This document shows positions 1-52,552 of a DNA stretch of 64,000 nt, piece by piece; position 1 is the first letter of the stretch; every line of letters begins with the position of its first letter. The DNA is from a virus. The notes beneath the pieces were generated by a model that saw only the letters and a list, made by a program, of their open reading frames with translations, did no database searches and was not told where the DNA came from. The stretch is from IMG/VR virus record IMGVR_UViG_3300020204_000008, one strand, 5' to 3'. Position numbers and translations under genes: made by a program.

Positions 1-276
1 GCTTATGTGAAGGATCCTACTCCAGGATATTATGGAGCAGTTGCCTGCTATGACTTTTCTTCAATGTATCCAAACATTCAGATTCAATTCAATATTTCTC
101 CAGATACCTATCTTGGTAAGACTGATAAAATCAAACGCGATGGCACTGAGATTCACACTAAGAATAACACATTATTTTCAACTAAGACCGACTCGGTAGC
201 TCGAACCATCCTTACTAGACTTTATGATGAGAGAATCAGAACTCAAGGAGAAATGAAAAAACTAAAAAGCTCATAA
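1..276 (+). CDS. gp43: Family B DNA polymerase, N-terminal gene (gp43A-like), 3' end only; runs off the window start
   Basis: Motif A YDFSSMYPNIQIQFNISPDTY; stops after the first fingers helix (RLYDERIRTQGEMKK) with no motif B or C. Confidence 0.9.
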   Translation, partial: AYVKDPTPGYYGAVACYDFSSMYPNIQIQFNISPDTYLGKTDKIKRDGTEIHTKNNTLFSTKTDSVARTILTRLYDERIRTQGEMKKLKSS

Positions 277-506
277 TGGCAAAACCTATACTTGTAATCG
301 CTTTACCCGAGGATTCAATAACTAAATTACAGCCCGTTAATGAATCCATTGCTCAATTGGAAAAAAAATTGACTGATTATCATGTGATAGCCTATCGAGC
401 CAGTGACATAGAAAAATTGACCTTGAATGTACTAAACGCAGATGAGGCTGACGATCTAGACATTGAAAAACTAAAAGAAGAGATAAATTTTAAAATAACC
501 AAATAA
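276..506 (+). CDS. hypothetical protein
   Basis: 76-aa ORF coupled to the upstream stop (TAATG). Confidence 0.7.
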   Translation: MAKPILVIALPEDSITKLQPVNESIAQLEKKLTDYHVIAYRASDIEKLTLNVLNADEADDLDIEKLKEEINFKITK

Positions 507-507
507 T

Positions 508-840
508 ATGGACACAACACAAGACTTTGTAAACTGGTTAGAGGGGTTTCTGGACGCATGTAAGAATACACCCTCTCCTCAACAAGTAAAAGAGATCAGA
601 AAAAAAATCTCTGCTCTACCTAAATCAAAGGATAGATTTCAAGTAAACCGTGCATCAGGTGAAGTTTATACTCCATTATGGAATTCTAATTCTGGTCCAG
701 TACCAGCTGATCACTTTTCAACGATCACACTGGTTCAACCGGATTCAGATCGTCCAAATAACGGTTCACTTGATGAAGAATTTATTAAAGCAGTTAATAA
801 CAATAAAACTGCCTCAACTATGGAAGAGCTTAACTCTTAA
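508..840 (+). CDS. hypothetical protein (F.NWLEGF N-terminus)
   Basis: 110-aa ORF tightly packed in the operon. Confidence 0.7.
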   Translation: MDTTQDFVNWLEGFLDACKNTPSPQQVKEIRKKISALPKSKDRFQVNRASGEVYTPLWNSNSGPVPADHFSTITLVQPDSDRPNNGSLDEEFIKAVNNNKTASTMEELNS

Positions 841-856
841 AAAAAATCAAGACCAG

Positions 857-2081: not shown

Positions 2082-2981
2082 ATGGCAAAGTCAACAAATG
2101 ACGCAATCAACGCTTTTAATAAATTCAATGATCTATTAGAGAAAAAAGTAAAATCCAAAGTCACCCTAATGGGATTTTCCGACATTGATGATTATATTCC
2201 TACCGGTAATTATCTCCTAAATGCTCAGATCTCAGGATCAGTCTTTGGAGGATATCCAAATACCAGAAGCATTGGAATCGCTGGAGATTCTGGAGCAGGC
2301 AAAACGTTTCTTTGTTTAAACGCAGTACGAGAACTTCAAAAGAAAAACTATTTTGTTTTCTATATCGACACTGAGGGTGCAATCGATCGTTCTGACTATA
2401 CTAAATTTGGCGTAGACTTAGAGAAATTAAAATACCTTCGTATGGGTCTAATTAGCGATGTTAAGTTCTTTATCAATGACTTTATTGAAACGATGAGAGA
2501 GAATCCAGGATTAAAAGCTGCTATTTTTGTTGATTCAGTTGGGATGCTTGATACTGATAAGAGCAAGAGAGATATGGATGCCGGTAAAAACGCATCTGAC
2601 ATGGGACTTCGTTCTAAAGAGATGAGATCTCTATTCAAATCATTTACTCTTGAATTATCTAACTTAAAGGTTCCATTCATCTTCACAAACCACACTTACG
2701 CCTGCTTTCCAGGAGAACAGTTAATTATTACTGAAAACGGAACCACTAGAATAATGGATTTAAAAATAGGAGATCTAGTTGATACTTTAGAAGGATTTAA
2801 ACCAGTTGAAAATATTTTTACATATGATAATGCTAATCTTCTAGAAATAGAATTTGAAGATGGGACAATAGTTAAATGCACACCAAATCATAAATTCTTA
2901 GTAAGCGAAGACTGGGAAAATGAAGAATCTTGGGTAGAAGCAATGGATTTAATTGAAGGTTCTGAAATAACCTGTAAATAA
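2082..2981 (+). CDS. uvsX: UvsX/RecA recombinase N-extein fused to split-intein N part (2703..2978)
   Basis: Walker A GDSGAGKT, IDTE, Walker B IFVDS, FTNHTYA; then intein block A CFPGEQLIITENG and block B CTPNHKFL; stop codon. Confidence 0.95.
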   Translation: MAKSTNDAINAFNKFNDLLEKKVKSKVTLMGFSDIDDYIPTGNYLLNAQISGSVFGGYPNTRSIGIAGDSGAGKTFLCLNAVRELQKKNYFVFYIDTEGAIDRSDYTKFGVDLEKLKYLRMGLISDVKFFINDFIETMRENPGLKAAIFVDSVGMLDTDKSKRDMDAGKNASDMGLRSKEMRSLFKSFTLELSNLKVPFIFTNHTYACFPGEQLIITENGTTRIMDLKIGDLVDTLEGFKPVENIFTYDNANLLEIEFEDGTIVKCTPNHKFLVSEDWENEESWVEAMDLIEGSEITCK

Positions 2982-2998
2982 AATAACATTTAAAAGAT

Positions 2999-3694
2999 AT
3001 GAAAAAGTTAAAAGTTAAATCAATTAAGAAAATCGAATCAAGTAAAGTATATGATATTCAAGTAAAAGATGTACATCATTTTGTCTTAGATAACTCAGTA
3101 GTGACTCATAATTCAATGGATCAATATACTCCAAAGGGAATGTCTGGCGGCGGAGGTCCTGAATTTTCTGCCTCAATCATCTTAATGTTGAGTAAAGGTA
3201 CGCTAAGAGACGAGGCAAAGACTACTACTGGAATCATCGTAAGATCCAAGACCAGAAAGAATCGTTTAGCTAAACCAATCGACATTGAATTCCACATCTC
3301 ATTCCATAAAGGTATGAATCAATATGTTGGTCTTGAACAATTCGTAAATTGGGAAAACTGTGGAGTCGGTCGAGGAAATAAACTTACTGAAAAAGAGTTT
3401 TCTAAATTAAAAGCAGATGAGCAATCTCTCTGTTCAGAGTTTGAGGTAGAAGGCGAAAAATTTTATTTTCTACCTAAAAAGCTTGGAAAAAATTACGTCA
3501 TTCGACATAATGGTGACCTAGTACCAATAAAAGAATTTTTCTCAGCTAGATTATTTACACAAGAGGTTCTAATGGAACTTGATGAAAAAATAATTAAACC
3601 GACCTTTAAATTTCCAGAAACTCAAGACGAGATCGATCTATTGGAGACTAGTGAACTTAACGACCTAAATGACGATGATGACTCTACGTTCTGA
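2999..3694 (+). CDS. uvsX: split-intein C part (2999..3112) fused to UvsX/RecA C-extein
   Basis: VYDIQVKDVHHFVLDNSVVTHN|S, then SMDQYTPKGMSGGGGPEFSAS...KTRKNR, the RecA L2 loop and downstream strands. Confidence 0.95.
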   Translation: MKKLKVKSIKKIESSKVYDIQVKDVHHFVLDNSVVTHNSMDQYTPKGMSGGGGPEFSASIILMLSKGTLRDEAKTTTGIIVRSKTRKNRLAKPIDIEFHISFHKGMNQYVGLEQFVNWENCGVGRGNKLTEKEFSKLKADEQSLCSEFEVEGEKFYFLPKKLGKNYVIRHNGDLVPIKEFFSARLFTQEVLMELDEKIIKPTFKFPETQDEIDLLETSELNDLNDDDDSTF

Positions 3695-4010
3695 TCTTCC
3701 AATAAAATACTATTTGAATCTATATAATGAGGAGGGACTAAGCGACGAGTTTACCCTCCTTTTTGAGATCCTACAGTACATAATAAAAGTCGCAAATTCT
3801 AAAGAAAAATCAATTGAACTAAAGACTCTTAAGTTTTCTTCTAAATCCTTAAAATATGTTTTTGGTGACAAAATTAAGGACGAAACCTTTAAAACATTTT
3901 TAGTTAAATCTTTAAAAAGTATGATCGGTGACGAATATCTCATGGCTGAAGGTGACTTCATCTACTTTACAAAAAAAGGATTAACCCATTTTTACTTAAC
4001 GAATGATTGA
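3669..4010 (+). CDS. hypothetical protein (possible winged helix)
   Basis: ORF overlaps both neighbours; ends IYFTKKG, a wHTH-wing-like pattern. Confidence 0.6.
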   Translation: MTMMTLRSDLPIKYYLNLYNEEGLSDEFTLLFEILQYIIKVANSKEKSIELKTLKFSSKSLKYVFGDKIKDETFKTFLVKSLKSMIGDEYLMAEGDFIYFTKKGLTHFYLTND

Positions 4011-5487
4011 TTTTACAGAAAACATTGACTCTCTTGAAAAGATGGTTTGGAATTTTATCTTAAGTTCCGAAAATGACATAAATGACTTGCGTCCATCTAA
4101 TCATGATTCGTTAAGAAGAGAGGAGCTGATCACCATGATGAAGCCCAGTTATTTCAATGAAGACGATCGTCAAGAATCATTTAAAGCGGCAGCTAAGTTT
4201 TTTAAAGAATACGAAAAGATTCCAAATCGAAAGGAACTAAAGAGCTACTTGGAAGTTAGCAATATAAGTCTAAATGACGATGAGTTTGATGAATTGTATG
4301 CAGTTAGCTTAACTGAATACAATTATGACTATCTCTATAAATACGTTAGATCATTTATTCTCTTAAGAAACCTAAACCTAACAGTCTTTGACTTGTTAAC
4401 CTATTTAAAGACTACTCCAATCGATCCAGGGAACATCGATAAGATCTCTGAAAAGATTAGAAACGATATAAGTAATAAGTTAGCACTAAACTTTTCTAGT
4501 GCGGATACTGGCCTAAATTTCTTTAATCCTGAATCTCACATCCAGATCTCTAAGACGGGCAGCCCGACTGGCTTTCCTTTCTTAGATAAGGTACAGGGCG
4601 GTGGCTGGAATTCAAAAGCGCTAGTCGTTTTTCAAGGTCGACCTAAAGTCGGTAAGTCAATGGTTCTTGGAAATATTGCAGCCCGATCATTCTTAACCGG
4701 CAATGCGACCGGTTTAGTGACAGTTGAGTTAGCTGACCGCGCCTATATGAAACGAATCGGCTCAAATATTCTAAATATTAAATCTGAAGATTATTCTAGG
4801 ATCACAGATGAGCGAGCTGCTCAACTGATTCAAAGCAAGATTCAAGAACTTAAGGACTCTGGCCAAACGGTCGGCGAATTAATTGTAAAGGAATTTCCGA
4901 CCGGCGGTGCTACTGCCATTGACATTGAAAACTACTTTGTTCGACTTGAACAAAAAATGAATAAGAAATTTAAAGTGATTGTAGTAGATTACTTAAATCT
5001 CCTAAAACCAATCAATTCTCAAAATGGTCTATACGAAAAGATTAAAGCCATCTCTGAGGAACTTAGAGGAGTGGCAATGAGAAATGAATGGTGTATCGTT
5101 AGTGCAACTCAAATTCGTAGAGAAGATATTGATAACTTTGACCTAGGCATGGATTCAGTTGCTGAATCATTTGGTCTCATTCATACGGTTGACTCTCTAT
5201 TTGGGCTTATGCGAAGTCCGCTTGAGAGTAGAATGAAGATTAAGGTGATTGCTAATCGAGATAACGGCTATGAAGAGAGCTATAAGTTCTATACGATGCA
5301 CAAAGACTATTTTAGGTTATCTGAGGAAGTCGGTCAAAACAGTGAATTCTATAGCGACGATGAGGAAGTAAGCCGAATGGCCGATGAATTGAGATCAGAG
5401 TATTCTGAGATAAATAAAGCATCAGCTGAACCCGTGTCAAGCATTCCAATTGAAGACGATTATGACGCTCTCTTCAATTCAATATAA
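4003..5487 (+). CDS. gp41: DnaB-family replicative helicase (gp41-like)
   Basis: PTGFPFLD..GGW, Walker A GRPKVGKS, KEFPTG, VVDYLNLL, SEELRG, SATQ, AESFG. Confidence 0.95.
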   Translation: MIDFTENIDSLEKMVWNFILSSENDINDLRPSNHDSLRREELITMMKPSYFNEDDRQESFKAAAKFFKEYEKIPNRKELKSYLEVSNISLNDDEFDELYAVSLTEYNYDYLYKYVRSFILLRNLNLTVFDLLTYLKTTPIDPGNIDKISEKIRNDISNKLALNFSSADTGLNFFNPESHIQISKTGSPTGFPFLDKVQGGGWNSKALVVFQGRPKVGKSMVLGNIAARSFLTGNATGLVTVELADRAYMKRIGSNILNIKSEDYSRITDERAAQLIQSKIQELKDSGQTVGELIVKEFPTGGATAIDIENYFVRLEQKMNKKFKVIVVDYLNLLKPINSQNGLYEKIKAISEELRGVAMRNEWCIVSATQIRREDIDNFDLGMDSVAESFGLIHTVDSLFGLMRSPLESRMKIKVIANRDNGYEESYKFYTMHKDYFRLSEEVGQNSEFYSDDEEVSRMADELRSEYSEINKASAEPVSSIPIEDDYDALFNSI

Positions 5488-5501: not shown

Positions 5502-6041
5502 ATGAGTCAGGAAGAAATAGAAGAACAGTTCGAAGATCAGGTCAGAGAGGACAAGATCTTCAATAATAGTTACTATAACGGTGATAAATTAAAAGATTCT
5601 GAAGACTATGAGTTTTCAAAAAAGATATCGGTCTCTGCTGATTACTCAGATAACTATCTAAAGGATCTATATGATTATGAGGAACAACTAGATTCAAAGT
5701 TTATATTAGACATGATCTTTGATTTTTTAAAAACCGATGAAGTATTAAGTAAATACGTTACTAACTTGACCAGTGATTCGTCTGTGTCTAAAGTAAAGTT
5801 TTCAAAGGAGGACATTAACCTACTTTTTAATCGAGTTCATGAAAACATAGACCTTGCCAATCAAGGAATAGCTTTTTATAGTCCTATTTATATTCTTGAA
5901 GTGATCTCATCGATTTCTTCGATGGAATATAAAAAGATCTTTGATTCACTGGAAACAGATGTTCAGGAGATCCTGATCCTTGAATTAAATAAGAAGTATA
6001 AGTTTCTAGAAGGAAAAATGAATAAAAAAAGAATACACTAA
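5502..6041 (+). CDS. hypothetical acidic protein
   Basis: 179-aa ORF in the replication operon. Confidence 0.7.
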   Translation: MSQEEIEEQFEDQVREDKIFNNSYYNGDKLKDSEDYEFSKKISVSADYSDNYLKDLYDYEEQLDSKFILDMIFDFLKTDEVLSKYVTNLTSDSSVSKVKFSKEDINLLFNRVHENIDLANQGIAFYSPIYILEVISSISSMEYKKIFDSLETDVQEILILELNKKYKFLEGKMNKKRIH

Positions 6042-6265
6042 TGGTTTGGATTAAATTTTCACACTCCAGTGGAGCAGCTCACATTAATCTTGAGCAAACA
6101 TATTTGATCACTAGAAATAGCTCAACTCAAATACAGTTCACCGACTCTGCCTCAAACAATACGATCTACTCCTTTTCAACATCCGCTGATGCTGATCTTC
6201 TTCTAAAAAAGATAAATCGGGTTGCTAAAATAATAGATATTGACCAGCTAGCTAATCAGGGATGA
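6041..6265 (+). CDS. hypothetical protein
   Basis: Coupled ORF (TAATG start, ATGA end). Confidence 0.65.
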   Translation: MVWIKFSHSSGAAHINLEQTYLITRNSSTQIQFTDSASNNTIYSFSTSADADLLLKKINRVAKIIDIDQLANQG

Positions 6266-7371
6266 AATTAGAAGGAATTAGGAGAATATTTGTCCTAGGA
6301 GATCTCCATTTAGGAGTAAGAAACAATTCAGTAGAGTGGTCAGAAATACAATCTGACTTTTTAATAAAGGAATTCTTAAATAAGATTAACGAAGAAGAAT
6401 TTGATCCTAAGACTGATATACTTGTACAAGTAGGAGATTGGAACCACGTCAGAGAATCAACAAATGTTCGAATATATAAGCTTTCTCTAAAAATAGCCGA
6501 AGAACTCACTAAAAAGTTTAAAAGAGGAGTTTTTGTGATCTTAGGTAATCATGACGTATATTATAAGGACAGAACTGATACTCACTCTTTGGAAGGATTT
6601 AGCAAAATCTATCCAAACTTTCAAGTTTATGAAAAACCTGAGATCCTTACCATTAATTCCCATAAGTTCTTAATGCTTCCTTGGATCGAGAATCTAAATG
6701 AACTTAAGTCTCAAGTAAAGTCTTATGGCTCAGCAAAATATGCTTTTTGTCATGCGGATTTCAAGGGATTTAATTTCAATAAGGTTCAAAAGCTTGAACA
6801 TGGGTTGGAACAAGAGGACATTCAATCATATAAAAGAATATACTCTGGACATATTCATATTCGACAAGAGAAGGGAAACGTTCTCTATGTCGGTACTCCA
6901 TATCAAATGGATCGTGGAGACAGGGGTAATGACAAAGGATTCTATGTGTTAGACGTTAGTGGAGCCGATGTGCAAGAAAAATTCGTGCTCAATACGTTTT
7001 CACCAAAGTACGTAAAGTTTGATGTCACCGATCTCTTGAATCTTACGTCAACTGAGATAACCTCACTATTCCATAATAATTTTGTTGACATCTTACTTGA
7101 GTCTGATTTTTCAAAAAAGTTTCCAATCTCTCAGTTTACAGAATTGGTAAAAAAGTTTGGACATCGTCATCTTGAGTTCGGCTCCTATTCAAAAGAACAG
7201 TTAAAGGAACGTAGTGAGATAGAAATCAATTCAAACTATGAATATAACGTGTTTACGATACTTGATGAAAGAATAAAGAGCATGAATCTGCCTTTTATTC
7301 AAGCCAAGGAGATAACCGACAGATTTAAAGAGATTTATGATTCACTAAGAAATACCAAACAATACGACTAA
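6262..7371 (+). CDS. gp47: Mre11/SbcD-like recombination nuclease
   Basis: GDLHLG, GDW, GNHD, H, SGHIH metallophosphoesterase motifs; adjacent to Rad50-like gene. Confidence 0.93.
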   Translation: MKLEGIRRIFVLGDLHLGVRNNSVEWSEIQSDFLIKEFLNKINEEEFDPKTDILVQVGDWNHVRESTNVRIYKLSLKIAEELTKKFKRGVFVILGNHDVYYKDRTDTHSLEGFSKIYPNFQVYEKPEILTINSHKFLMLPWIENLNELKSQVKSYGSAKYAFCHADFKGFNFNKVQKLEHGLEQEDIQSYKRIYSGHIHIRQEKGNVLYVGTPYQMDRGDRGNDKGFYVLDVSGADVQEKFVLNTFSPKYVKFDVTDLLNLTSTEITSLFHNNFVDILLESDFSKKFPISQFTELVKKFGHRHLEFGSYSKEQLKERSEIEINSNYEYNVFTILDERIKSMNLPFIQAKEITDRFKEIYDSLRNTKQYD

Positions 7372-9041
7372 TGAGACTGACTGAATTTTCATATCGCAAC
7401 ATCTTATCATACGGCAATAAAATACAGACATTTAAGTTTGATGATAATCCAGGACTCATCTTAGTTGAGGGAGAAAACGGTGCCGGTAAATCTTCCATTA
7501 AGGAAGCACTAACCGTTTCAGTATACGGCCGATCAGCTATTCGAAAAATAAAAGACATTCCCAATTGGATCAATCGTAATGCATACACAAACGTAAAGTT
7601 TGTGACTAATTCTGGTGAGCAGATTGAGCTGACTCGAGGAATAGATCCAAACTTTAGCGATATCAAGATAAACGGTGCTCAATTTAACTTGCCCGATAAG
7701 AGAAAAGTAGATGAGTTTATCGAAGACGAATTAGCTAGAATACCTTTTACAGTCTTTTGTAATACCATAAGTCTTTCGTTTGATGATTTTAAATCATTCG
7801 TCAGTCTAAGCAAAGACGATAAGCGAAAAATAGTAGATCGAATATTTGGCATTGACATACTATCTGACATGAGATCCAAAGTTAAAGAACAACTTCGAGA
7901 TAATAAATCAGAAATCGATATAATTTCAGCAACTCTAAAAACTGGTCAAACTAACTTAGACTCGTATGCGACCCAATTAGCTTCTTTAAAGGAAAAATTA
8001 GCTAAAAAGAAGGAAGAGATCACCGATCGACTTATTCTCGATATTGAGAGTAAGAAGAAGGAGGTTGATTCTGCTCTACTTACTAAAAATGAATATCGAG
8101 AAAAGGTTTCAGCAAAGAGTAAAGAGAGCACCGTTGCACAACAGGAATTAGCCAAAACAAAATCAGATATTCGAGACCTTAATACTAAGCTTTTAATCTA
8201 TGCTAAGAATAGGTGTCCTCACTGTTTAAATGATCTAAAATCTGATTCTTCAATTGAGATAAAAGAAAAAATTAAGTCTAAAATCAAGAGTTTAGAAACA
8301 AGCCTAGAAGATCAAAAAAAGGTCGCTGACTCTCTAAACGAAGAATCTACTCTACTCTTACTTGGTCAGAGCGACATTGACTCCAACTATTCTGATCTCA
8401 AAGCAGAATTACAATCTCTTGAAAGAGAACTTAAGTCTGCCCAACAAAATGATGATTCTGATGAAATAGATTCTGTCTCTTCGATAATCAGTAGCCTGAC
8501 TTCTCAAATAGAGCAAGAAGCGATTCAGCTTTCTAAATTAAATGAGACTCGATCCATCTACCTAAGTCTAGACGATCTTCTTTCTGATTCTGGAATAAAA
8601 AGAGACATGATCGATAAAATCATTCCTACTCTAAACGCAAGGATACTTGATATTTCTGAAAAACTAGAATTTAAGTTTTCATTTGAGTTCGATAATGAGT
8701 TTGATCCTCACATCACATACTTAGGCATGCAGATCTCCCCAGAAAGTCTCTCTAGCGGCCAGCGAAAAAAGATGAACTTGATCGTGCTATTGGCTTTTAT
8801 CGAAATAATCAAGATGAAACACAGTACCATAAATGTGATGTTCCTAGATGAGATTTTTAGTTCATTAGATAAAACAAACGTGTATCGTGCCATCTCAATA
8901 TTAAAAGATTATTCTACAAAATATGGCTTGACCATCTTTGTGGTCTCACATGAGGCTCTGCCAGAAGAATTATTTGACAGTAAAGTTCAAGTCTCTCAAA
9001 AGGATCACTTTTCAGAGATGACTATCATCAAATCCTCTTAA
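7371..9041 (+). CDS. gp46: Rad50/SbcC-like ATPase
   Basis: GENGAGKS, coiled coils, CPHC zinc hook, LSSGQ signature, FLDE, VSH. Confidence 0.95.
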   Translation: MRLTEFSYRNILSYGNKIQTFKFDDNPGLILVEGENGAGKSSIKEALTVSVYGRSAIRKIKDIPNWINRNAYTNVKFVTNSGEQIELTRGIDPNFSDIKINGAQFNLPDKRKVDEFIEDELARIPFTVFCNTISLSFDDFKSFVSLSKDDKRKIVDRIFGIDILSDMRSKVKEQLRDNKSEIDIISATLKTGQTNLDSYATQLASLKEKLAKKKEEITDRLILDIESKKKEVDSALLTKNEYREKVSAKSKESTVAQQELAKTKSDIRDLNTKLLIYAKNRCPHCLNDLKSDSSIEIKEKIKSKIKSLETSLEDQKKVADSLNEESTLLLLGQSDIDSNYSDLKAELQSLERELKSAQQNDDSDEIDSVSSIISSLTSQIEQEAIQLSKLNETRSIYLSLDDLLSDSGIKRDMIDKIIPTLNARILDISEKLEFKFSFEFDNEFDPHITYLGMQISPESLSSGQRKKMNLIVLLAFIEIIKMKHSTINVMFLDEIFSSLDKTNVYRAISILKDYSTKYGLTIFVVSHEALPEELFDSKVQVSQKDHFSEMTIIKSS

Positions 9042-9056
9042 AGTTATAAAATATCG

Positions 9057-9083: not shown

Positions 9084-9098
9084 AATAAAAACTAAGTT

Positions 9099-10156: not shown

Positions 10157-10160
10157 CAGG

Positions 10161-42628: not shown

Positions 42629-42651
42629 CCTAAAATATTTTTTATTATTTA

Positions 42652-43841: not shown

Positions 43842-43885
43842 ACTATATTCTATTGATAAATAACAAAAAGTTTTATCCAAAAAAG

Positions 43886-44377: not shown

Positions 44378-44419
44378 ACTTTTATTCTTTTTTAAGTATA
44401 AGGATAAAAACATTCCGCT

Positions 44420-44854: not shown

Positions 44855-44869
44855 AAATAATGCACTGTC

Positions 44870-46303
44870 GTGCTAAGATTCAAAGTATCACAAGACAAGA
44901 AATTCATTAAGCTCGTAGATTCCACTCTAAACAGTGAAAAGACGAGCTTGTTTAGATTTTTTAAGCGAAAGTCTAAAAAAGCGGCATTCAATGTCCTTGT
45001 TGATCGCGGAGTGTGGGATGGATTGGACTCTTTTATTACTAAAGACGGCAATATCGCAATCGGACTGTGGAAAGAGATTTATAACTTTGCTGAAAAGTAC
45101 GGATATGACTGTGAGATCGAGGGAGCAGACCAATTCGTTAACACTAAGCTTGACAAGGCTAAATATCTTAAGTATGTTGAGAAACTATTAGACGGAATAG
45201 TCGATGAGAGAGGCTTTCCAATCGTGCCCAGGGACTATCAGATCGAAGGAGCGTTTAGAGCTATCAAATATAAGTTCTGTACCCAAGAGTTGGCGACCTC
45301 TGCCGGTAAGACTCTCATCTTTTTCATCTATAACTCATTCTTAAGGGATGGAGGCAAGATCACAAAGGATCGAAAGTCACTAATCATCGTTCCAAACATC
45401 TCGCTAGTCGGCCAGACTGCCGAAAAGTTCGAAATGTATGCTCAACCTGGTAGAGAATGGAGCGTGTGTACCATTGGAGGTAAGGACAAGTTCACTCAAG
45501 AGCGTTTTGATGATGCTGAAGTCGTGATTTCGACCTATCAGAGCCTAATTAACCTTCCAGTAGAAGTATTTAGGAAGTTTACGATAGTTCAAGTGGATGA
45601 GGTACATAAATCAAAGGGTAATTCCATTCGAGAGATCCTCTTGACCTGTGTTAATTGGGAATATCGACTGGGTTTATCCGGAACAGTTAAATTAGACGAG
45701 CAGTTTTCGGATTTTTTTAGGGTTCAGGAAAACGTTGGCCCTCTGGTGATGGTCCTTTCAGCAAAACACCTAATTGATCACGGATATTCGCCAAACATCC
45801 AGATCAAGATCATAAAACTCAAATACGATGAGTCGGAACCGATGATTCAAAAATACTGGCATCTAAAGGAGACCGGTAAGGAGATGTATAACAATCCCAA
45901 GGACTTTGGGCGGGACATGTTAGCCATCGAGAAGGGAATTATCTTCGATAGTAAAGAGAGATTAGACTTTATTAGTGATTTAGCTCGAAAATTCGGAAAA
46001 AACTCACTAGTCCTCTTTTCAGACGTCAAAAACGGTTACGGCAAGGCGATTCAGTCTAAATTGTTAGAGTGGAATCCAAATACTTTCTATATTGACGGCG
46101 AAGTTGACTCAAAGGATCGCGATAGGTTTATTAAAATTCTTGAAAATCCAAGTGACTTAACCGATATTGAATTTGGAGAAATTAAAATTACAGTTCATCA
46201 ATATTCTATTGTTCCTTTAAATAATGGTAAGTTTAAATTAGCTAAGGATATTACAATAGATGATGATATATCAGATGAGTGGATAAAAAATAATATGATA
46301 TGA
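44870..46303 (+). CDS. uvsW: UvsW helicase, N-terminal piece, plus a 52-aa foreign tail
   Basis: WDG, PRDYQ, ATSAGKT, IVP...LV.Q, STYQS, DEVH, GLSGT, YIDGEV; lacks motifs V and VI. Confidence 0.93.
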   Translation: MLRFKVSQDKKFIKLVDSTLNSEKTSLFRFFKRKSKKAAFNVLVDRGVWDGLDSFITKDGNIAIGLWKEIYNFAEKYGYDCEIEGADQFVNTKLDKAKYLKYVEKLLDGIVDERGFPIVPRDYQIEGAFRAIKYKFCTQELATSAGKTLIFFIYNSFLRDGGKITKDRKSLIIVPNISLVGQTAEKFEMYAQPGREWSVCTIGGKDKFTQERFDDAEVVISTYQSLINLPVEVFRKFTIVQVDEVHKSKGNSIREILLTCVNWEYRLGLSGTVKLDEQFSDFFRVQENVGPLVMVLSAKHLIDHGYSPNIQIKIIKLKYDESEPMIQKYWHLKETGKEMYNNPKDFGRDMLAIEKGIIFDSKERLDFISDLARKFGKNSLVLFSDVKNGYGKAIQSKLLEWNPNTFYIDGEVDSKDRDRFIKILENPSDLTDIEFGEIKITVHQYSIVPLNNGKFKLAKDITIDDDISDEWIKNNMI

Positions 46304-47292
46304 CGAAGGAACAAATAATGAATATTTTTATTGAATTCTGCGGAGCTCCGCAATCACTAGATAAATTAATAGAATATCTTGATTTTGTTATTTTATCAAA
46401 AAAGGATGATTTGTGCCAAGAGTATTGTGAAACTCATCATATTTTGCCTAGAGCACAATTTTTAGAGTATCAAAATAGCGAATGGAATCTAGTTAAATTA
46501 AAATATGAAGATCATATAAGAGCCCATGAACTCCTATTCATAGCATATCCAATTAGAAAAAATCAGCGTACTTTAAATTTCATGAAAAGTGAAATGAATA
46601 AGAATTCACAGTTAATATCAAAGTCATCTAAAAATGGATGGAAAAATTTAAAGCTCAATACTGAAAAATATGAAAATTGGAGAAATTCTCGAATTAACTA
46701 TATGAAAAATAATTCCAGCTGTCTACAATCAAAAAGAGCTAAACGTGGATGGGATACTCCTGAAAAATATGAAAAACGGTCTCAACTCAATAAAGAAAAT
46801 TGGACACCTGAACTAAGAGCTTGGAAAAGTAGAAGCATGTCTCAATATTTTAAAGATAATCCTCAAGAAATAGCTGAACGTAATCAAAAAAGATGGGATA
46901 ATATGTCACATGAAAAAAGAGAACAATTTAATAATAAAATGAAAATTATAAATTTAGATCCAATTAAAAGAGCAAAGGCCGGCGAAAAAATTAGTAACAA
47001 ATGGAAGGATCCTGAATATAGAGATAAAATGAAAAATCGAAATACTTATAAACTTTCCTTTAGGTTTATTTCTCCTACTGGCGAAATATATGAAAGATCC
47101 GGATTTTTTGAAATGATTAATGAGTTTAATTTTTCTCCATATTTTGTAAATAAATTTAAAAATACTGGAAAACCTGTGAGTACTACTAAAAAGAGTCAAG
47201 ACGCTTTAAATACAGTAGGATGGATGTTTTTTCAAAAATAATAAACTAATATGGCAAAACCAAGTAAACATAAAAATTATAGAGATGAAAAT
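46148..47292 (+). mobile_element. AT-rich HNH insertion splitting uvsW, bounded by TGAAAAT repeats
   Basis: TGAAAAT at 46141..46147 and 47286..47292; removing the insert gives KILEN-EATAVIVASY. Confidence 0.75.
46300..47241 (+). CDS. free-standing HNH homing endonuclease (Mob-like)
   Basis: ETHHILPR...NLVKL..EDH..AHELL, followed by basic helical repeats. Confidence 0.9.
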   Translation: MTKEQIMNIFIEFCGAPQSLDKLIEYLDFVILSKKDDLCQEYCETHHILPRAQFLEYQNSEWNLVKLKYEDHIRAHELLFIAYPIRKNQRTLNFMKSEMNKNSQLISKSSKNGWKNLKLNTEKYENWRNSRINYMKNNSSCLQSKRAKRGWDTPEKYEKRSQLNKENWTPELRAWKSRSMSQYFKDNPQEIAERNQKRWDNMSHEKREQFNNKMKIINLDPIKRAKAGEKISNKWKDPEYRDKMKNRNTYKLSFRFISPTGEIYERSGFFEMINEFNFSPYFVNKFKNTGKPVSTTKKSQDALNTVGWMFFQK

Positions 47293-47596
47293 GAGGCAAC
47301 GGCTGTGATCGTTGCCTCATACTGAGGACGGAACATTTGCCACTGGAATCGATTCTAAAAACCTTCATCACATCATCTTAGCCGAATCGATCAAGGCTGA
47401 GGTCACACTACGTCAAGCAATCGGTAGAGGGATGAGAAAATTGGCAGAAAAGACAAAAGTGCTCGTTTGGGACCTAGTTGATCAGCTTGATGGCTATTCG
47501 ATTAGGCACGCTAAAGTAAGAAAAGAGATCTATCGAGAACAGAAATTCGAGACGTCAGACAAGACAGTCGACTTAACGAAAAAACGACCTGAGTAG
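47251..47596 (+). CDS. uvsW: UvsW C-terminal piece (motifs V and VI), interrupted by a 7-nt gap containing TGA
   Basis: ATG 47251 reads MAKPSKHKNYRDENEATAVIVASY-TGA; GTFATGID.KNLHH..QAIGRGMRK resumes in the +1 frame at 47330. Confidence 0.8.
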
Positions 47597-47604
47597 GTCG
47601 TTTT
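47581..47604. terminator. bidirectional terminator hairpin
   Basis: AAAACGACCT-gagt-AGGTCGTTTT. Confidence 0.8.
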
Positions 47605-47666
47605 ATGCTATTTTAAAAAAAAGAATATCTTTAATCATTATATAATACCTCGGTGAAGTTAATTGA

Positions 47667-47924
47667 TTATTTTTGTCTTTTTATTACATTACGAAGTATT
47701 TCAACAGTCTTATTGTCGAATTTACCTGTAACTTTGGGAGCATGTGTTTCTTGAAATCCTTTAAGTGCCTCAACTGTTTCTGAGTCAAGTTTTCCGGTCT
47801 GAGACACACCCAACACGTTTTGAAAACTTTTCAATTCTTCCTCAGTTATGATTGGACCTCCAGGACCAGCGACTTCGTTTACAAACTGACCGAATGTTTT
47901 TACGTGGTTCTTATTCATCATCAT
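47667..47924 (-). CDS. CTS-motif protein with peptidoglycan-binding (PGBD-like) repeats
   Basis: HVKTFGQFVNE; LKSFQ..LG...TGKLDSET and LKGFQ......TGKFDNKT. Confidence 0.7.
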   Translation of the reverse strand: MMMNKNHVKTFGQFVNEVAGPGGPIITEEELKSFQNVLGVSQTGKLDSETVEALKGFQETHAPKVTGKFDNKTVEILRNVIKRQK

Positions 47925-47940
47925 TATTATTTATTTTTAT

Positions 47941-48702
47941 TTATCTATTCAGCCTTTCAGAATTTTCGATCTTTTCAAACACCTCTTCCAATTTCATGAT
48001 GATAGGGTGGCGCACGATATCCTCCTTAGACAACTGTGCTATTCCAATCTCCTCTATCTCTACGAAATGTTCGATCAGGATCTCAAGAGCGCTCTTCTGA
48101 CCCTTATTGACCGACTTCTGTTTAATATCTCCCAAGAATACCATCTTGGAATTACTGCCGATCCTGGTCAATAGTGTATGTAGGTGATCCTTCGCTATCT
48201 GTTGAGCCTCATCGATCAGGATGATAGCATTGTCTAGGGTCACACCTAATGCGAACTTGATCGGTAGGATCTCAATGTTTCCGTTTGCCTTTAGAGACTC
48301 GGTCGCCTGCTTGCCGATCACCTTGTGAAAATTGGAAATAAATGGATACATGTACATCTCCATCTTCTCCTCTAAGGTTCCCTTTAAGTAACCTATCTCC
48401 TCATCCTTAGGCACGTTAACTGATTTTATTAAGATGATCTTTTTGTAGGTTCCAGGATCCTCCTTTAAGTACTTGAGTGCTCTAGCACAGGAGAGATAGG
48501 TCTTACCCGTTCCTGGAGGTCCAGTTATGATTGATATGTCATGGTCCTCAATAGCGGTTAATGCATCCTTTTGGGCTCTAGATTTACACTTTATCTCTAT
48601 CTTGTTTGAGAACATCTTAGCTGCGGTTAGTGCCTCACGCTCTCTTTGCCAGGTTTCGATATCTTCTAATTCCTCTTTGCTTAGTTTTTTTCTCTGTGCC
48701 AT
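47941..48702 (-). CDS. phoH: PhoH-family ATPase
   Basis: GPPGTGKTY, IGYLKG...EKM..Y, DEAQ, LTRIG, GD..Q, DIVRHP. Confidence 0.93.
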   Translation of the reverse strand: MAQRKKLSKEELEDIETWQREREALTAAKMFSNKIEIKCKSRAQKDALTAIEDHDISIITGPPGTGKTYLSCARALKYLKEDPGTYKKIILIKSVNVPKDEEIGYLKGTLEEKMEMYMYPFISNFHKVIGKQATESLKANGNIEILPIKFALGVTLDNAIILIDEAQQIAKDHLHTLLTRIGSNSKMVFLGDIKQKSVNKGQKSALEILIEHFVEIEEIGIAQLSKEDIVRHPIIMKLEEVFEKIENSERLNR

Positions 48703-48705
48703 AAG

Positions 48706-49332
48706 TTAGTATATTTTAGCTGCGATCACGATCCCAAGTAGGATCTTTATGTAGTGGATCTGAAAGTTAAGGAAAGCTCGTACCGCTTTAAATTGTTTTT
48801 CTGAAAACTCAGTGGATCTTAGTGTGGCTGCGCTTAGTTTCTGTAAACCCAGTCTTATCTTTGAATTCAAGGCAGTATCGTAAATGCTCGTAAAGTCCAC
48901 GATTATGTCGCTAAAATTGATCCCAGTAACGTTATCACAATTTAGGAGCTTTAAGAACTTTCTGCCTGCCTTGATCGTCTTGATCTTTAATAGAAGGTCA
49001 TCCTCCTTTAGTGAATTATCCAGAGCCTTGCTTAGGGCGTCCATCTTTTTTATGTTTACTGCCTCTTCGGCTATCCACTCAACGTCTCCTCTATAGAGTG
49101 AAATTGAGACGTCTGATCCGTCTTCAATATAGTAGAAGTTAAGGCTCTGTATCGTTCCATTGTCCCCAAACGCCTTCACTAAGATCGGTGAGATTCCCAA
49201 TTTTATAAGGTCATCTCCTCGTTCAACCATCGATATGTCATAGTCTCCAAACGGAAACTCTGTCATGAATGGAAGAACCGTCTTTAATTCTGAAGTCTTA
49301 TCTACTGCTCCATCTTGGTCACGGTCATCCAT
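48706..49332 (-). CDS. hypothetical protein
   Basis: About 208 aa; late motif at 49350..49358. Confidence 0.7.
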   Translation of the reverse strand: MDDRDQDGAVDKTSELKTVLPFMTEFPFGDYDISMVERGDDLIKLGISPILVKAFGDNGTIQSLNFYYIEDGSDVSISLYRGDVEWIAEEAVNIKKMDALSKALDNSLKEDDLLLKIKTIKAGRKFLKLLNCDNVTGINFSDIIVDFTSIYDTALNSKIRLGLQKLSAATLRSTEFSEKQFKAVRAFLNFQIHYIKILLGIVIAAKIY

Positions 49333-49453
49333 ACCCAAACCTCTTTTTGTTATTTATTTCCAAGAAATCCATGGAATCTTTAATGTGCTGACACTATATA
49401 GTATTTTTAGTCTAGTCTGAAACTGTATAATACAGGCTAAGTATAAAAAAGAC

Positions 49454-50116
49454 ATGGAAGATAAATCAAAACAAATTAAAAAACTTGATCTTAAGCAGAA
49501 TGCGATCAAGATCTTAATCAACTCTATTTATGGAGCATTTGGGAATAAGTGGTTCTATTTCTACAATCCCGATATTGCCCAATCAATTACGATACAGGGC
49601 CAAGACCTAATCAAGTTTTCAATCAAGGCCGTGAATCACTACTTCCTAGAAAAGTGGCACCTTGACACCGACCTGCATAAATTATTGGGTCTAGAAGGTT
49701 ACACGATCAATAAGATCGAGGATGAGGCTGCTATCTACACGGACACTGACAGTGTGGTAGCAGACACTATTATTACTAGCGGAAAGTATGGCAGTTTATC
49801 AGTCGAGGATTGGTATGATCTCAACGTCTCAAATGGATCAGCCGGTAATACTCTTGCTGGTCATGAATCAGTAAAGGTCGATTCGTCTGATTCAATTTTA
49901 AATTGGGATAAGTCAAATGGACTACATGAATCTAGAGTAAAGCGAATCATTCGACATCGAGTTACTAAAGAAAGATGGAAGCTAACTACTGAATCCGGAA
50001 AGACAGTTATTGTTACTGGAGACCATTCACTTATCGTGTTTAGAGATAATGTGCAACTTGAGATAAAAGCCCGTGATATTAATCCGAAAACCGATTTAGT
50101 TTTAGTAGTAAAATAG
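49454..50116 (+). CDS. gp43: DNA polymerase B middle piece (motif B to YTDTD) fused to split-intein N part (49751..50113)
   Basis: KQNAIKILINSIYGAFGN, YTDTD|SVVADT; block B VTGDHSL; promoter motif at 49420..49447. Confidence 0.95.
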   Translation: MEDKSKQIKKLDLKQNAIKILINSIYGAFGNKWFYFYNPDIAQSITIQGQDLIKFSIKAVNHYFLEKWHLDTDLHKLLGLEGYTINKIEDEAAIYTDTDSVVADTIITSGKYGSLSVEDWYDLNVSNGSAGNTLAGHESVKVDSSDSILNWDKSNGLHESRVKRIIRHRVTKERWKLTTESGKTVIVTGDHSLIVFRDNVQLEIKARDINPKTDLVLVVK

Positions 50117-50142
50117 ATAAGCAGTATCTGTATATATACTAT

Positions 50143-51321
50143 ATGGCAAATAGAATATCATCATCACGTGAATTAGAGAAAATATACTTAGAAAATAATA
50201 TATCTCACTCTCCATGTAAAGAGTGCTCATCTGCTATTTGGTATCCACATACAATTGTCTCTAGAGATAAAAAAGGAAACGTTAAAATCGTAAATGCAAA
50301 TCATTTAACAATTAAGAACTTTAACGGAAAAGACTATCCTCTAGTTGTGTGTTATGACTGTCTAACTTTAAAATTTCCGGAAATTTCTAATAAGAACTCA
50401 AGTAAACTTTTTAACACTTGTAATGAATACGTAAAATTTGCATTTAAAGTAGAAGATGATGAATTTCTAAGTAAAAGAAAAGATCATGGAATAACTTTAG
50501 ATAAGATGATTCAATTACATGGTGAAAGAGAAGGTACTCAGAAATGGGAAAAATACTGTTCCTTTCAAAGAGAGAAAAATACCTTTGAATATAAAAAACA
50601 AAAATACGACTTAACTAGGGAGGAGTTTGATGAGTTCAATCGATCTAGGGGAGTCACTGAAGCTAATTTAATTAAAAAATACGGTACTGATATTGGAAAA
50701 GCTAAATGGCTGGACTATATAAACCGTCAGCGATTTACAAAGAGCATAGAATATTATATTGATAAGTATGGAAAAAAGGAAGGTCCTCTTAAATGGAGCG
50801 AATTAAATTCATCAAAGGCATTAACTTTATCGAATTTTGTAAAAAGGTATGGCGAAGAGCTCGGATCAAATAAATTCGAAGAGTATTTGTCTAGATTTAA
50901 GACATCAACAAGTAAAGTGTCACAAAGCTTCTTTAATTCTCTTGATTTAAAGTTAGGTGAGTTTAATTTAAAGACGTATTATCATTCAAAAAATACTGAA
51001 TTTTCAATACTTCTTAAAAACCTAAATAAGTATTATAAGTTAGATTATTATATCTTTGATTTAAAAATAGCAATTGAATATAATGGAGACTATTGGCATG
51101 CTAATCCTGAAATATACTTAAGGGATGACATAATTCATTCCGATCTAACCGCTAACGAAATATGGGATCGTGACACCGCTCGAATAAATAATTTACTTTT
51201 GGAAAAAGGAATTGAGACTATTAAAGTATGGCAAAAGGATGATTTTATAAATAGAGAAAACATTTTAAATAAAATATATGAAGAAATTAAACACAGAGTT
51301 CGAGAAAATAAAATCAATTGA
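50143..51321 (+). CDS. free-standing Vsr-like/PD-(D/E)XK homing endonuclease with KYG repeats
   Basis: LDYY......IEYNGDYWH.NP...WDRD..R....G...VW; repeated KYG..G..KW; AT-rich. Confidence 0.85.
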   Translation: MANRISSSRELEKIYLENNISHSPCKECSSAIWYPHTIVSRDKKGNVKIVNANHLTIKNFNGKDYPLVVCYDCLTLKFPEISNKNSSKLFNTCNEYVKFAFKVEDDEFLSKRKDHGITLDKMIQLHGEREGTQKWEKYCSFQREKNTFEYKKQKYDLTREEFDEFNRSRGVTEANLIKKYGTDIGKAKWLDYINRQRFTKSIEYYIDKYGKKEGPLKWSELNSSKALTLSNFVKRYGEELGSNKFEEYLSRFKTSTSKVSQSFFNSLDLKLGEFNLKTYYHSKNTEFSILLKNLNKYYKLDYYIFDLKIAIEYNGDYWHANPEIYLRDDIIHSDLTANEIWDRDTARINNLLLEKGIETIKVWQKDDFINRENILNKIYEEIKHRVRENKIN

Positions 51322-52552
51322 AAGGCTTACTGACTTTAATGACGAATTTGTGTATGATGTTGAAGTGGACGAAGAGTCTCACTCATTTATCGCAAACGAT
51401 ATATTAGTTCACAATTCAATCTATGTCCAATTTGACTCTGCTATAGATTCAATAATAGGTGCCGAGTTTACTAAGGACGAGGCTCTAAACGTCTGTATCA
51501 ACATTGACCGATATCGTCTATCTAGTTATTTTGATGCCTGTTTTGAAAAGTACGGCAAGGTCTTTAATACTAAGAATCGACTAAAGTTTAAGCTTGAAAA
51601 CCTTTCTGAGACTGGAATCTGGCTTAAGAAAAAGAATTATGCTATTCGAGTGGCATACGAACCTAATCCAAACTATGAGTTAGAGCCTCAAGAAAAAAGA
51701 TACTTAATCATCAAGGGATTGGAACCAGTAAAGGGTTCATATCCTATTTGGGCAAGGGACCGATTGACCGATCTTACCTCCTTCATCATGGACAGAGGTA
51801 AGAGGCTAGACATCGAAAGGGATATTATTCCAAGACTAGTGACTTTAAAAAATGAAGCCATTTCCATGCATCCCGATGAATTGGCCTTTAATTTTAATAT
51901 CCGAATCTACAACAAGTATGTCGCTAGCGAAGAGCGGCTTGAACTTAAGAAGGGAATATCGATCTTTCCTCGAGCGGCTGCGATCTATAATCACATCCTA
52001 ATCAAGACCGGCCTTACTGAAAAATATCCCAAGATCAGAGAAAAGGACAAGATCAAGTTTTATTACTGTAATCCTGAACACAATGATGGAGGACATGACG
52101 TGTTCGCCTATTCTCCAGGAACCTATCCTGACGAGATAGCTCTTAAGATGGATATCGATGCTCAGTTCTTTTCCTTAATCGTGGAACCGGTGAACCGACT
52201 CTTGACTGCAATGAAGATGAGCTCGCTTGATATTAATCTAAAAAGAGCGGTCGATATGGTCACAGTAAAGAGCAAAAAACTTCTCACTGACGAGCAGTTA
52301 TATCCGCTATACATCGTCGATCAAGAGACTCTAGAATACGTTGAAGTTCCTGAAAAGTTCTGGAAGGTGATCGGAAATCCGGATGCAGATATTCCGGAAG
52401 CCGACTTTCAAGAGTACTTGGCAGTGATCACTCGATACGGGCTAAATACCACTATCGTGCCCAAGCCTGAACTCGATAAGTACTTGAAAAGAATGACTAA
52501 AAAGCTAGAGAAAAAGAATCCAGTACCCGAATTAGAGGAGGAAAATGCTTGA
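51278..52552 (+). CDS. gp43: split-intein C part (51278..51415) fused to DNA polymerase B C-terminal piece
   Basis: VYDVEVDEESHSFIANDILVHN|SIYV; KLE, KKKNYA, IKGLE, DKIKF. Confidence 0.95.
   Translation: MKKLNTEFEKIKSIERLTDFNDEFVYDVEVDEESHSFIANDILVHNSIYVQFDSAIDSIIGAEFTKDEALNVCINIDRYRLSSYFDACFEKYGKVFNTKNRLKFKLENLSETGIWLKKKNYAIRVAYEPNPNYELEPQEKRYLIIKGLEPVKGSYPIWARDRLTDLTSFIMDRGKRLDIERDIIPRLVTLKNEAISMHPDELAFNFNIRIYNKYVASEERLELKKGISIFPRAAAIYNHILIKTGLTEKYPKIREKDKIKFYYCNPEHNDGGHDVFAYSPGTYPDEIALKMDIDAQFFSLIVEPVNRLLTAMKMSSLDINLKRAVDMVTVKSKKLLTDEQLYPLYIVDQETLEYVEVPEKFWKVIGNPDADIPEADFQEYLAVITRYGLNTTIVPKPELDKYLKRMTKKLEKKNPVPELEEENA

Follow-up and report, generated by a model that had tools for sequence, protein, structure and literature searches.

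Split family-B DNA polymerases and comparison with the present locus

Two-gene forms of the T4-type DNA polymerase gp43 (43A/43B) have been described in the Aeromonas phages 25, 31, 44RR and 65 and in Acinetobacter phage 133 (Petrov et al. 2006, 2010), and the gap between the cistrons in published T4-like cases ranges from 2 bp to 3 kb (PMC3061061). The gp43A and gp43B proteins of phage 25 co-purify and are active (PMC2988022). Split inteins flanking a Vsr-like endonuclease have been described as fractured genes (Dassa et al. 2009, PMC2677866), and in Aeromonas phage Aes509 (JN377902) gp43A is followed by gp43B1 with an N-intein, a putative VSR endonuclease and gp43B2 with a C-intein. Family-B polymerases (PolB) in pieces are also known from phage PhiKZ, where DNAP-N (gp82) and DNAP-C (gp50) form a stable 1:1 complex (PMC13648687), from Methanothermobacter, with pieces 85 kb apart (as cited in PMC3061061), and from Nanoarchaeum equitans, with a split intein (as cited in PMC2677866). 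In addition, Pfu polymerase split at the fingertip was fully active after being rebuilt from separate fragments (PMC3061061).

The window analysed here is a stretch of 64,000 nucleotides of viral DNA (IMG/VR record IMGVR_UViG_3300020204_000008). It belongs to a large freshwater T4-type phage whose family-B (T4 gp43-type) DNA polymerase is divided among three genes (A, B and C) at two loci. The first-pass annotation placed the motif A piece about 49 kb from the motif B/C pieces, which was borne out: 49,177 nt were measured from the stop of A to the start of B, an interval that holds about 50 genes, on both strands. The features are as follows.

1..276, + strand: 3' end of the gp43A-like gene (A), 91 codons plus stop, with a Pfam DNA_pol_B profile match
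2082..5487, + strand: uvsX, a 113-aa ORF and a gp41-type helicase (context, gene content 3' of A)
48706..49338, - strand: divergent gene upstream of B, with the late-type motif ATAAATAA on the other strand of the spacer
49339..49453, + strand: divergent spacer 5' of B, with AGTATAA at 49440-49446 and a second GTATAA at 49425
49454..49750, + strand: B extein, 99 aa, running from the second fingers helix through motif B (KILINSIYG) to YTDTD, the start of motif C
49751..50116, + strand: N-intein, 121 aa plus stop, with Ser1 and block B TGDH
50143..51321, + strand: free-standing putative Vsr-like homing endonuclease, 392 aa, in a frame other than that of B and C
51278..51415, + strand: C-intein, 46 aa, ending in ...VHN, its start overlapping the 3' end of the endonuclease gene by 44 nt
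51416..52552, + strand: C extein, 378 aa, with the SIYVQF start, the remainder of the palm, a KKxY-type motif (KKKNY) and the thumb
52545..53681, + strand: gp61-like DNA primase (context), overlapping the end of C by 8 nt

The bicistronic gp43 phages share with this phage a break at the fingertip between the fingers helices, but their cistrons are adjacent, whereas the halves lie 49 kb apart here and 52-67 kb apart in relatives. The Aes509 design is that of the window phage, with a homologous endonuclease at the same motif C site. Since Aes509 groups with T4 in the A-region tree, its split arose independently, and the fingertip of the window clade is short and of archaeal type, unlike that of the Aeromonas T4-like phages. 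In PhiKZ, Methanothermobacter and N. equitans one PolB is likewise made from unlinked genes, but the lineages differ and the break lies elsewhere (a palm insertion, the palm and an intein-mediated site, respectively), and none of the three combines a non-covalent with a split-intein break. The engineered Pfu split (Hansen et al. 2011, PMC3061061), at 467/468, is only a few residues from the break mapped here; unlike the phage arrangement it is artificial, archaeal and bicistronic. The order B, endonuclease, C, in which the endonuclease has a reading frame to itself at the canonical intein split site, agrees with the fractured genes (PMC2677866), but the loci of Dassa et al. lack a further, intein-free break far away in the genome. 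The PolB of Pseudomonas phage MIJ3/PA5oct has a split intein (PMC6892783) and no fingertip split, its N-terminal piece spanning the N-terminus to motif C.

The Flavobacteriia jumbo phages, Tenacibaculum phage PTm1/PTm5 and Chryseobacterium phage MA9V-1/2, cluster with the window phage in one PolB group of the tree and also have intervening genes between A and a downstream B. The PTm1 B is annotated as an 'intein-containing split DNA polymerase precursor', and a VSR endonuclease gene is present. The gap in PTm1 and MA9V is only about 2-3.5 kb, with two hypothetical genes (plus TnpB in MA9V-2), and a search for homologues of the window's intervening genes between A and B of PTm1 and MA9V found none. 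The three-gene design has thus already been annotated, as adjacent genes in Aes509 and PTm1, and is itself not new; every ingredient has published precedent, and the novelty is limited to the A-B distance among T4-type phages.

Structure of the polymerase genes

In window positions 1-276, profile positions 47-142 of Pfam DNA_pol_B were matched (E 4e-9), and a profile search for an intein or Hint match over the same positions found none. The complete A gene, taken from independent assemblies, encodes 472 aa (L002:4467-5885), starts 1,142 nt before the window and matches both PF03104 and PF00136. Besides the N-terminal domain and the first fingers helix it encodes Exo I-III and motif A (DFSSMYP); an upstream check for the exonuclease part, proposed in the first-pass annotation, located all the exonuclease motifs in A (Exo I DIE, Exo II NVTEFD, Exo III YNVID). 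The stop at 274-276 was the same in the window and two other assemblies and overlaps the following ATG (TAATG). Residues 377-468 of A align on solved structures to Deep Vent 383-470, and the RB69 and T4 structures were matched at E 1e-30. The structure alignment and the profile search agree with the earlier reading that this gene halts at the fingers tip past motif A without an intein. The position of A is that of the undivided gp43 in cyanophages (order gp43-uvsX-gp41). The uvsX near A is itself divided by a second split intein.

The B ORF (49454-50116, +) runs from the second fingers helix through motif B and YTDTD to an Intein_splicing match, and the C ORF (51278-52552, +) opens with the C-terminal block of the intein (...VHN|S), followed by palm and thumb. 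On solved structures, residues 9-91 of B align to 9 degrees N / Tgo 477-562, in agreement with the claim that the gene at 49454 opens with the second fingers helix. The PF00136 matches on the A and B pieces (E 4e-9 and 1e-12) and the RB69, T4 and archaeal PolB matches (HMM and PDB) abut at the fingertip. From alignment with T4, Aes509 and others and from PDB mapping, the break separates the two fingers helices, with a real stop in A and an own start in B; the A and B ranges on solved structures place it at the fingertip with no part missing. No obvious extra interaction segment reinforcing the A-B contact was found, the fingertip being minimal in the window clade.

Motif C is completed only at the B|C joint (YTDTD plus SIYV giving YTDTDSIYV). 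Since motif A is on A, motif B on B and motif C needs B-C joining, a single active site requires all three products.

Split intein and endonuclease cassette

All splice-critical residues are present (Ser1, TGDH as TxxH, terminal HN and Ser+1), and Pfam Intein_splicing matches both intein halves, the C half under the gathering score. The starts of B and C have a coordinate mod 3 of 2 and the endonuclease is in frame 1, with stops at 50114-50116 (B) and 51319-51321 (endonuclease). The endonuclease matched phrog_22677 (E 2e-64), the 'putative VSR endonuclease' of Aes509 at the same site (38% identity, E 1e-51) and PTm1 ORF-240 (28% identity, E 5e-25); the sole Pfam match, to REase_MTES_1575, was weak (E 0.006, below cut-off).

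The intein was absent in 53 of the 56 IMG/VR relatives, where B is joined to C exactly at the predicted junction: extein B residue 99 directly adjoins extein C residue 1, and the codon after YTDTD is the first of SIYVQF. The endonuclease gene was absent in 54/56. One relative (L024) carries an unbroken mini-intein within a single 639-aa ORF, and another (L023) has the window-type split intein and endonuclease gene. The intein-free, whole-intein and split alleles at one site fit the gene-breaking or fractured-gene model, of which the series (intein-free, whole-intein, endonuclease-broken) is a clean illustration. The intein and endonuclease cassette is probably a recent, sporadic mobile insertion.

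Independent assemblies and conservation in relatives

An assembly artefact, that is, a chimera or misjoin with A truly adjoining B in the genome, was considered as the window is metagenomic data and several short-read contigs end at identical points near window positions -5,608, 25,640 and 63,490. Against this, window 1-60116 is tiled collinearly by five loci from five sequencing runs at 99.99-100% identity, with overlaps of 1.5-12.8 kb and no rearrangement. A 69,099-bp contig was recovered in each of two runs; for one of these, extrapolation from the mapped middle part gives window -5,608..63,490, a span that includes both loci, and the second has an identical left end.

The synteny check suggested in the first-pass annotation gave the same picture. 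In five IMG/VR relatives (A identity 52-92%) the A-B distance is 52.1-67.0 kb on the same strand, the genes from A through to B keep a collinear order in all three relatives compared gene by gene, and A lies less than 10 kb from B in none of the 56 relatives. The artefact explanation, which has a negligible probability, is effectively refuted by a spacing of 52-67 kb retained in relatives down to 52% identity together with the tiling. The chimeric contig named as a possible refutation was accordingly rejected, on the independent assemblies and on the collinearity of three diverged relatives. The three-gene layout with a distant front half is confirmed as real and is conserved in relatives.

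In five related contigs of 125-207 kb, PF00136 occurs in exactly two places per contig, with complementary ranges (about 20-145 and about 137-321), and PF03104 in one place above cut-off in each; these contigs are 50-81% complete (CheckV), so a second polymerase could lie outside the sequenced part. The complete Lak genomes have one A and one B each and no second polymerase. For each half dN/dS is about 0.02-0.04 with similar dN (rough values, as dS is saturated at >1.5), both halves are under strong purifying selection, and A and B/C diverge in step among relatives. A close fused form was sought in a set of 5.8 billion proteins, in which the best full-length relative was at most 36% identical.

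Proposed assembly of the enzyme

A single replicative PolB is very probably made from three genes in two unlinked transcription units. The first-pass annotation's reading of one non-covalent assembly step and one trans-splicing step is supported, both steps being predicted from experimentally tested homologues. From the first unit would come the 472-aa subunit, which contributes the N-terminal domain and the proofreading exonuclease along with motif A of the palm and the first fingers helix; the second would supply B, in which the second fingers helix, motif B and YTDTD precede the N-intein, and C, in which the C-intein precedes the remainder of the palm and the thumb. The intein halves are predicted to associate and trans-splice first, giving a 477-aa gp43B-like chain with motif C (YTDTDSIYV) intact, and this chain would then bind subunit A non-covalently. 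The antiparallel fingers helices and the palm would thereby be rebuilt from two polypeptides, like the two-gene gp43 of the Aeromonas phages.

It is also conceivable, and quite unlikely, that splicing has been lost and that B and C are separate chains held by the intein fold, giving a three-subunit enzyme. Inteins with Ser1 and Ser+1 can be slow, which would suit this; but Ser1, TxxH, terminal HN and Ser+1 are all intact, an unspliced 167-aa domain inside motif C would be expected to disrupt the active site, and homologous cassettes at the same site occur in the viable cultured phages Aes509, PTm1 and MIJ3/PA5oct (PMC6892783).

Less likely still is that the halves are not partners, with A a stand-alone exonuclease or proofreading subunit and B/C working with another protein, or with one half a relic. 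The replicase would then be the host polymerase or a split minimal Pol III-alpha-like enzyme, such as that reported for the jumbo-phage group of the window phage (PMC7824862). The loci are unlinked and transcribed separately, a sub-threshold DnaQ-like exonuclease ORF occurs in relatives, and the related contigs are incomplete. Against these points, only A supplies the metal-binding Asp of motif A and only B/C supplies motif C, and neither half has a whole active site; the exactly complementary profile ranges in single copies, the equal strong purifying selection on halves diverging in step, and the activity of homologous two-gene enzymes (PMC2988022) also speak for one enzyme. The possibility that each piece has a different partner elsewhere, raised in the earlier annotation, did not hold with one A and one B/C per related contig, and separate partners were rejected on the single copies and complementary ranges in the five contigs, with the Lak genomes likewise.

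Transcription units and upstream motif

The first unit would comprise a MazG-like gene, a small ORF and A, with its start in a divergent spacer some 1.9 kb 5' of the window, and the second B, the endonuclease, C and the primase, with its start in the divergent spacer 49339-49453. The primase is probably in the transcription unit of C, given the 8-nt overlap on the same strand. As the neighbour at 48706-49338 is on the opposite strand, there is no read-through into B from upstream.

AGTATAA lies 8 nt before the ATG of B, as it does in most relatives. It is found just 5' of the ATG in both polymerase units, each of which begins after a divergent gene, and is distinct from the late-type ATAAATAA motif found upstream of structural genes. 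It matches no recognised promoter consensus, and a canonical sigma-70 promoter was not found on the + strand of the spacer 49339-49453. The claim that the gene at 49454 has its own promoter motif thus stands as to a conserved AGTATAA in a divergent spacer, but not as to a sigma-70 consensus. A and B/C may be co-regulated via this common motif, and the arrangement raises the testable question of equal dosage of halves from separate transcription units.

Unlinked halves in Lak megaphages and evolution of the split

The Lak megaphages and the uncultured phages LR756500, LR756501 and LR756504 (462-735 kb), which are unannotated records, have the same fingertip split with unlinked halves. In Lak-A2, LR756504 and LR756501 the halves are on opposite strands, separated by about 221 kb, about 281 kb and, counted along the linear record, 619 kb (about 116 kb for a circular genome), respectively. 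In Lak-B5 and LR756500 they are about 10 kb apart, and in Lak-B5 B and C are upstream of A. The Lak B piece also carries an N-intein. Distances, strands and even order differ from those of the window clade, and the fingertips are long and T4-like. A search of the available literature collection for a published description of the unlinked split PolB of Lak and these LR7565xx phages found no paper.

The statement that split pieces are normally neighbouring genes fits the T4-like cases in the literature, with gaps of 2 bp to 3 kb, but not this huge-phage group, in which unlinked halves are usual; adjacency is a description of the known bicistronic gp43 cases and not a mechanistic requirement.

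In the A-region tree, Lak, the 462-735 kb phages and the window clade form one well-supported group (98/99 branch). Shared ancestry of the split across Lak, the 636-735 kb uncultured phages, the Flavobacteriia jumbo phages and the window clade is fairly well supported. The fingertip split is probably old and common to a large group of jumbo and mega phages. An essential replicase can remain split and unlinked over long evolution, A identity being about 52% in the clade and lower across the super-group. It is doubtful that the unlinked fingertip-split PolB is ancestral and fixed in the super-group and was retained as useful rather than merely tolerated. If so, the split could allow the exonuclease and polymerase halves to be dosed separately, or could leave the fingertip open and nucleotide selectivity relaxed, as in the engineered Pfu split; relaxed selectivity would suit phages with DNA-modification genes. 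Known mechanisms are unchanged by these findings.

Phage classification and completeness estimates use PolB as a standard marker. As its half-genes lie tens to hundreds of kb apart throughout this group, automatic pipelines will mislabel or miscount it. In the PTm1 and MA9V-2 records the pieces are named 'DNA polymerase', 'DNA polymerase II' and 'DNA polymerase family B'.

Piece A and the 49 kb separation

The start of the window falls within the gene whose stop codon is at 276, and the 91 residues of piece A in the window have Pfam DNA_pol_B positions 47-142 as their sole match. Upstream sequence was taken from independent metagenome assemblies carrying the window's first bases, and the complete gene for piece A, the gp43A-like half of the polymerase, was found in the retrieved contig L002:

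L002:4467-5885, piece A, 472 aa, matches to PF03104 and PF00136

The exonuclease part, which the first-pass annotation had proposed to look for upstream of the window, is thus present: piece A carries motif A as well as Exo I, II and III, with a long helix at the C-terminal end. The stop codon is the same in the window and in two other assemblies. In a set of 5.8 billion proteins, no full-length fused PolB near piece A exceeded 36% identity, which is weak evidence but suggests that the split is fixed in the window clade.

The separation of about 49 kb between piece A and pieces B and C is real. Positions 1-60116 of the window are covered by five loci from five sequencing runs at 99.99-100% identity and without rearrangement, neighbouring loci overlapping by 1.5-12.8 kb, and the spacing is kept in relatives. 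A chimeric contig had been named as one way in which the distance could be false; this is rejected, since both the independent assemblies and the gene order of three relatives are collinear with the window.

A 69,099-bp contig was obtained from each of two runs. Mapping of the middle of one of them places its ends, by extrapolation, at window positions -5,608 and 63,490 (negative positions lie upstream of the window start), and the other shares its left end. A circular 69-kb element was considered and rejected, since nothing in the window matches the first 5.6 kb of L002 and the window extends beyond the contig end. Contigs from several independent short-read assemblies share start or end points at about -5,608, 25,640 and 63,490; such common breakpoints probably mark repeats, or junctions that vary between strains of the population.

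Pieces B and C and the fingertip break

The remainder of the polymerase lies at 49454-52552 and is encoded as follows:

From 49454, piece B, 220 aa, helix into motif B (KILINSIYG), reaching YTDTD at residue 99, then the intein N-half
Between B and C, ORF of 392 aa in a different frame
Piece C, 424 aa, first 46 residues intein ending in VHN, then SIYVQF... into palm and thumb

Residues 377-468 of piece A were aligned with Deep Vent 383-470 and residues 9-91 of piece B with 9 degrees N / Tgo 477-562 (solved structures), indicating that the break is at the fingertip and that no part is missing. It maps only a few residues away from the engineered break 467/468 of Pfu polymerase (PMC3061061). Piece A (472 aa) and the exteins of B (99 aa) and C (378 aa) sum to 949 aa, an ordinary gp43 size.

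Conservation in relatives

An exact-match search of IMG/VR with the window gave no hit. IMG/VR was also searched with piece B, giving 56 related loci that were then examined by tblastn. In 53 of them the B and C exteins form a single uninterrupted frame joined exactly at YTDTD|S, which fixes the intein boundaries. Piece A was absent from the flanks (up to 10 kb on each side) of all 56 B loci by tblastn. A whole-record search of five long contigs found one A gene per record, of 469-479 aa and on the same strand as B.

Distance from A to B and identity of A to that of the window in five long contigs of relatives
G002, 52.1 kb, 91%
G005, 52.7 kb, 92%
G003, 53.5 kb, 52%
G004, 53.6 kb, 59%
G001, 67.0 kb, 76%

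In each of these contigs PF00136 matches at exactly two places, whose profile ranges are complementary, and PF03104 matches above cut-off at a single place; this speaks against the other alternative raised earlier, that each piece has a different partner elsewhere. Strong purifying selection acts on both halves, which diverge in step (dN/dS about 0.02-0.04, with dS saturated). Three relatives were compared in full, and their genes between A and B follow the same order as in the window: uvsX, gp41-type helicase, Mre11/Rad50, a thymidylate-synthase-like gene, topoisomerase II, gp23, prohead protease, baseplate genes, RNA ligase, UvsW-like helicase and PhoH.

G001 has additional DNA in two places, one between the homologues of Rad50 and thyA and the other ahead of the baseplate block, which accounts for its 67 kb spacing. 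The window itself has a variable patch at 12287-17158, where the three relatives compared lack counterparts of two ORFs (14016-14468 and 14534-16303), and only one of these relatives has a counterpart of the Fpg-like glycosylase (16367-17158). A conserved bridging or adaptor gene beside A or B was also considered and rejected, as the small ORFs that follow A are not shared throughout the clade; the neighbours also differ in PTm1, MA9V-2 and LR756500.

Transcription motifs

A gene on the opposite strand precedes both the A unit (MazG-like gene, small ORF, A) and the B unit (B, endonuclease, C, primase), so each unit needs its own start. Two motifs were found ahead of genes. In the window, the late-type motif ATAAATAA[C/T][A/T]AAA, akin to the T4 late TATAAATA box, lies 10-20 nt ahead of structural gene starts, with examples at:

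14534-16303 (-)
25687-27660 (-)
36395-38353 (-)
53707 (+)
61394-62431 (-)

The different motif AGTATAA lies 5-20 nt upstream of several ATGs:

Ahead of the first two genes of the A unit
Ahead of the thymidylate-synthase-like gene (variant TGTATAA)
Ahead of gene 44420-44854, just upstream of the UvsW-like helicase
Ahead of piece B
Ahead of the gene at 56990

Upstream of B, AGTATAA is retained in most relatives despite divergence in the rest of the spacer. No sigma-70 consensus promoter was found on the + strand of this spacer, so co-regulation of the A and B units is plausible but only inferred. Leaders are generally A-rich and lack Shine-Dalgarno sequences, which would fit a Bacteroidota host.

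The fingertip split in other phages

A break at the same fingertip position was found in seven further phage records. Two of them are the unannotated Lak megaphage records MK250024.1 and MK250019.1, in which PolB is in pieces (A, B with N-intein, and C).

Distance between A and B in other phages with the fingertip split
PTm1, about 2 kb, same strand
MA9V-2, about 3.5 kb, same strand
LR756500.1, about 10.5 kb, same strand
Lak-B5 (MK250024.1, 505-516 kb), about 10 kb, same strand, A downstream of B and C
Lak-A2 (MK250019.1, 123 kb and 345 kb), about 221 kb, opposite strands
LR756504.1, about 281 kb, opposite strands
LR756501.1, 619 kb on the linear record, opposite strands

Published separations range from 2 bp to 3 kb in T4-like phages, with 85 kb in Methanothermobacter (PMC3061061), whereas that of the window phage is 49 kb and conserved. 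In the searchable literature, whose coverage is incomplete, no description was found of Lak or huge phages with unlinked halves of a fingertip-split PolB.

In a maximum-likelihood tree of the A region (19 sequences, a small sampling with an arbitrary root), a 98/99 branch places the window clade with all seven records listed above on one side and T4, Aes509, two cyanophages, a Campylobacter phage and PA5oct on the other. This tree would need two origins of the split, one in the large group including the window clade and one in Aeromonas phages, which is an indication rather than proof. Cyanophages have the order gp43-uvsX-gp41, while in the window piece A occupies the gp43 position and B/C adjoins the primase; relocation in either direction is compatible with these positions.

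Proposed assembly of the polymerase

Most likely, B and C would trans-splice to a 477-aa chain that would then bind A non-covalently. This working of the enzyme is proposed from tested homologues: gp43A/B of phage 25 co-purify and are active (PMC2988022), Pfu polymerase split at the fingertip has full activity (PMC3061061), and the PhiKZ PolB, encoded by two distant genes, forms a stable complex (PMC13648687). The split polymerase reported in the first-pass annotation is real, and its interpretation, with one non-covalent and one trans-splicing step, is sound.

Intein and endonuclease cassette

The B, endonuclease and C layout corresponds to what Dassa et al. described as fractured genes (PMC2677866), an arrangement also reported for the PolB of phage MIJ3 (PMC6892783). 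The 392-aa ORF matches phrog_22677, the Aes509 'putative VSR endonuclease' between gp43B1 and gp43B2 (38% identity, E 1e-51) and PTm1 ORF-240 (28% identity). The complete three-gene design is already annotated in Aes509, but the genes are adjacent there, whereas A is far from B/C in the window.

Among the relatives, L024 (IMGVR_UViG_3300042197_004886, 10001-11920) has an unbroken mini-intein at the same site in a single 639-aa ORF, and L023 (9722-12821) has a broken allele like that of the window with a 57%-identical endonuclease gene. The intein is absent from the other 53 loci with a readable junction. In L084 (Campylobacter phage CC_R7, 3354-6461), the alignment of an undivided PolB shows intein-like sequence after YNDTDS; a whole intein thus seems to occupy the motif C site here too, which would mean that inteins have repeatedly targeted this site in distant T4-type phages.

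Of two other genes of the window, one is also interrupted and one may be:

2082-2981 and 2999-3694 (+), UvsX/RecA, interrupted by a second split intein (Cys1 ... THN|S)
44870-47596 (+), UvsW-like helicase (ResIII/DEAD, weak UvsW_N match), pieces 44870-46303 and 47312-47596
46300-47241 (+), ORF of 313 aa between these two pieces

The UvsX intein halves are separated by 17 nt without an endonuclease gene, and the UvsX parts are contiguous in G001, G003 and G004, indicating that this intein is also a sporadic insertion. The 313-aa ORF lacks both a Pfam match and a counterpart in three relatives, where the pieces on its two sides adjoin each other; this comparison suggests that the UvsW-like helicase gene, too, has been split by insertion of an ORF.
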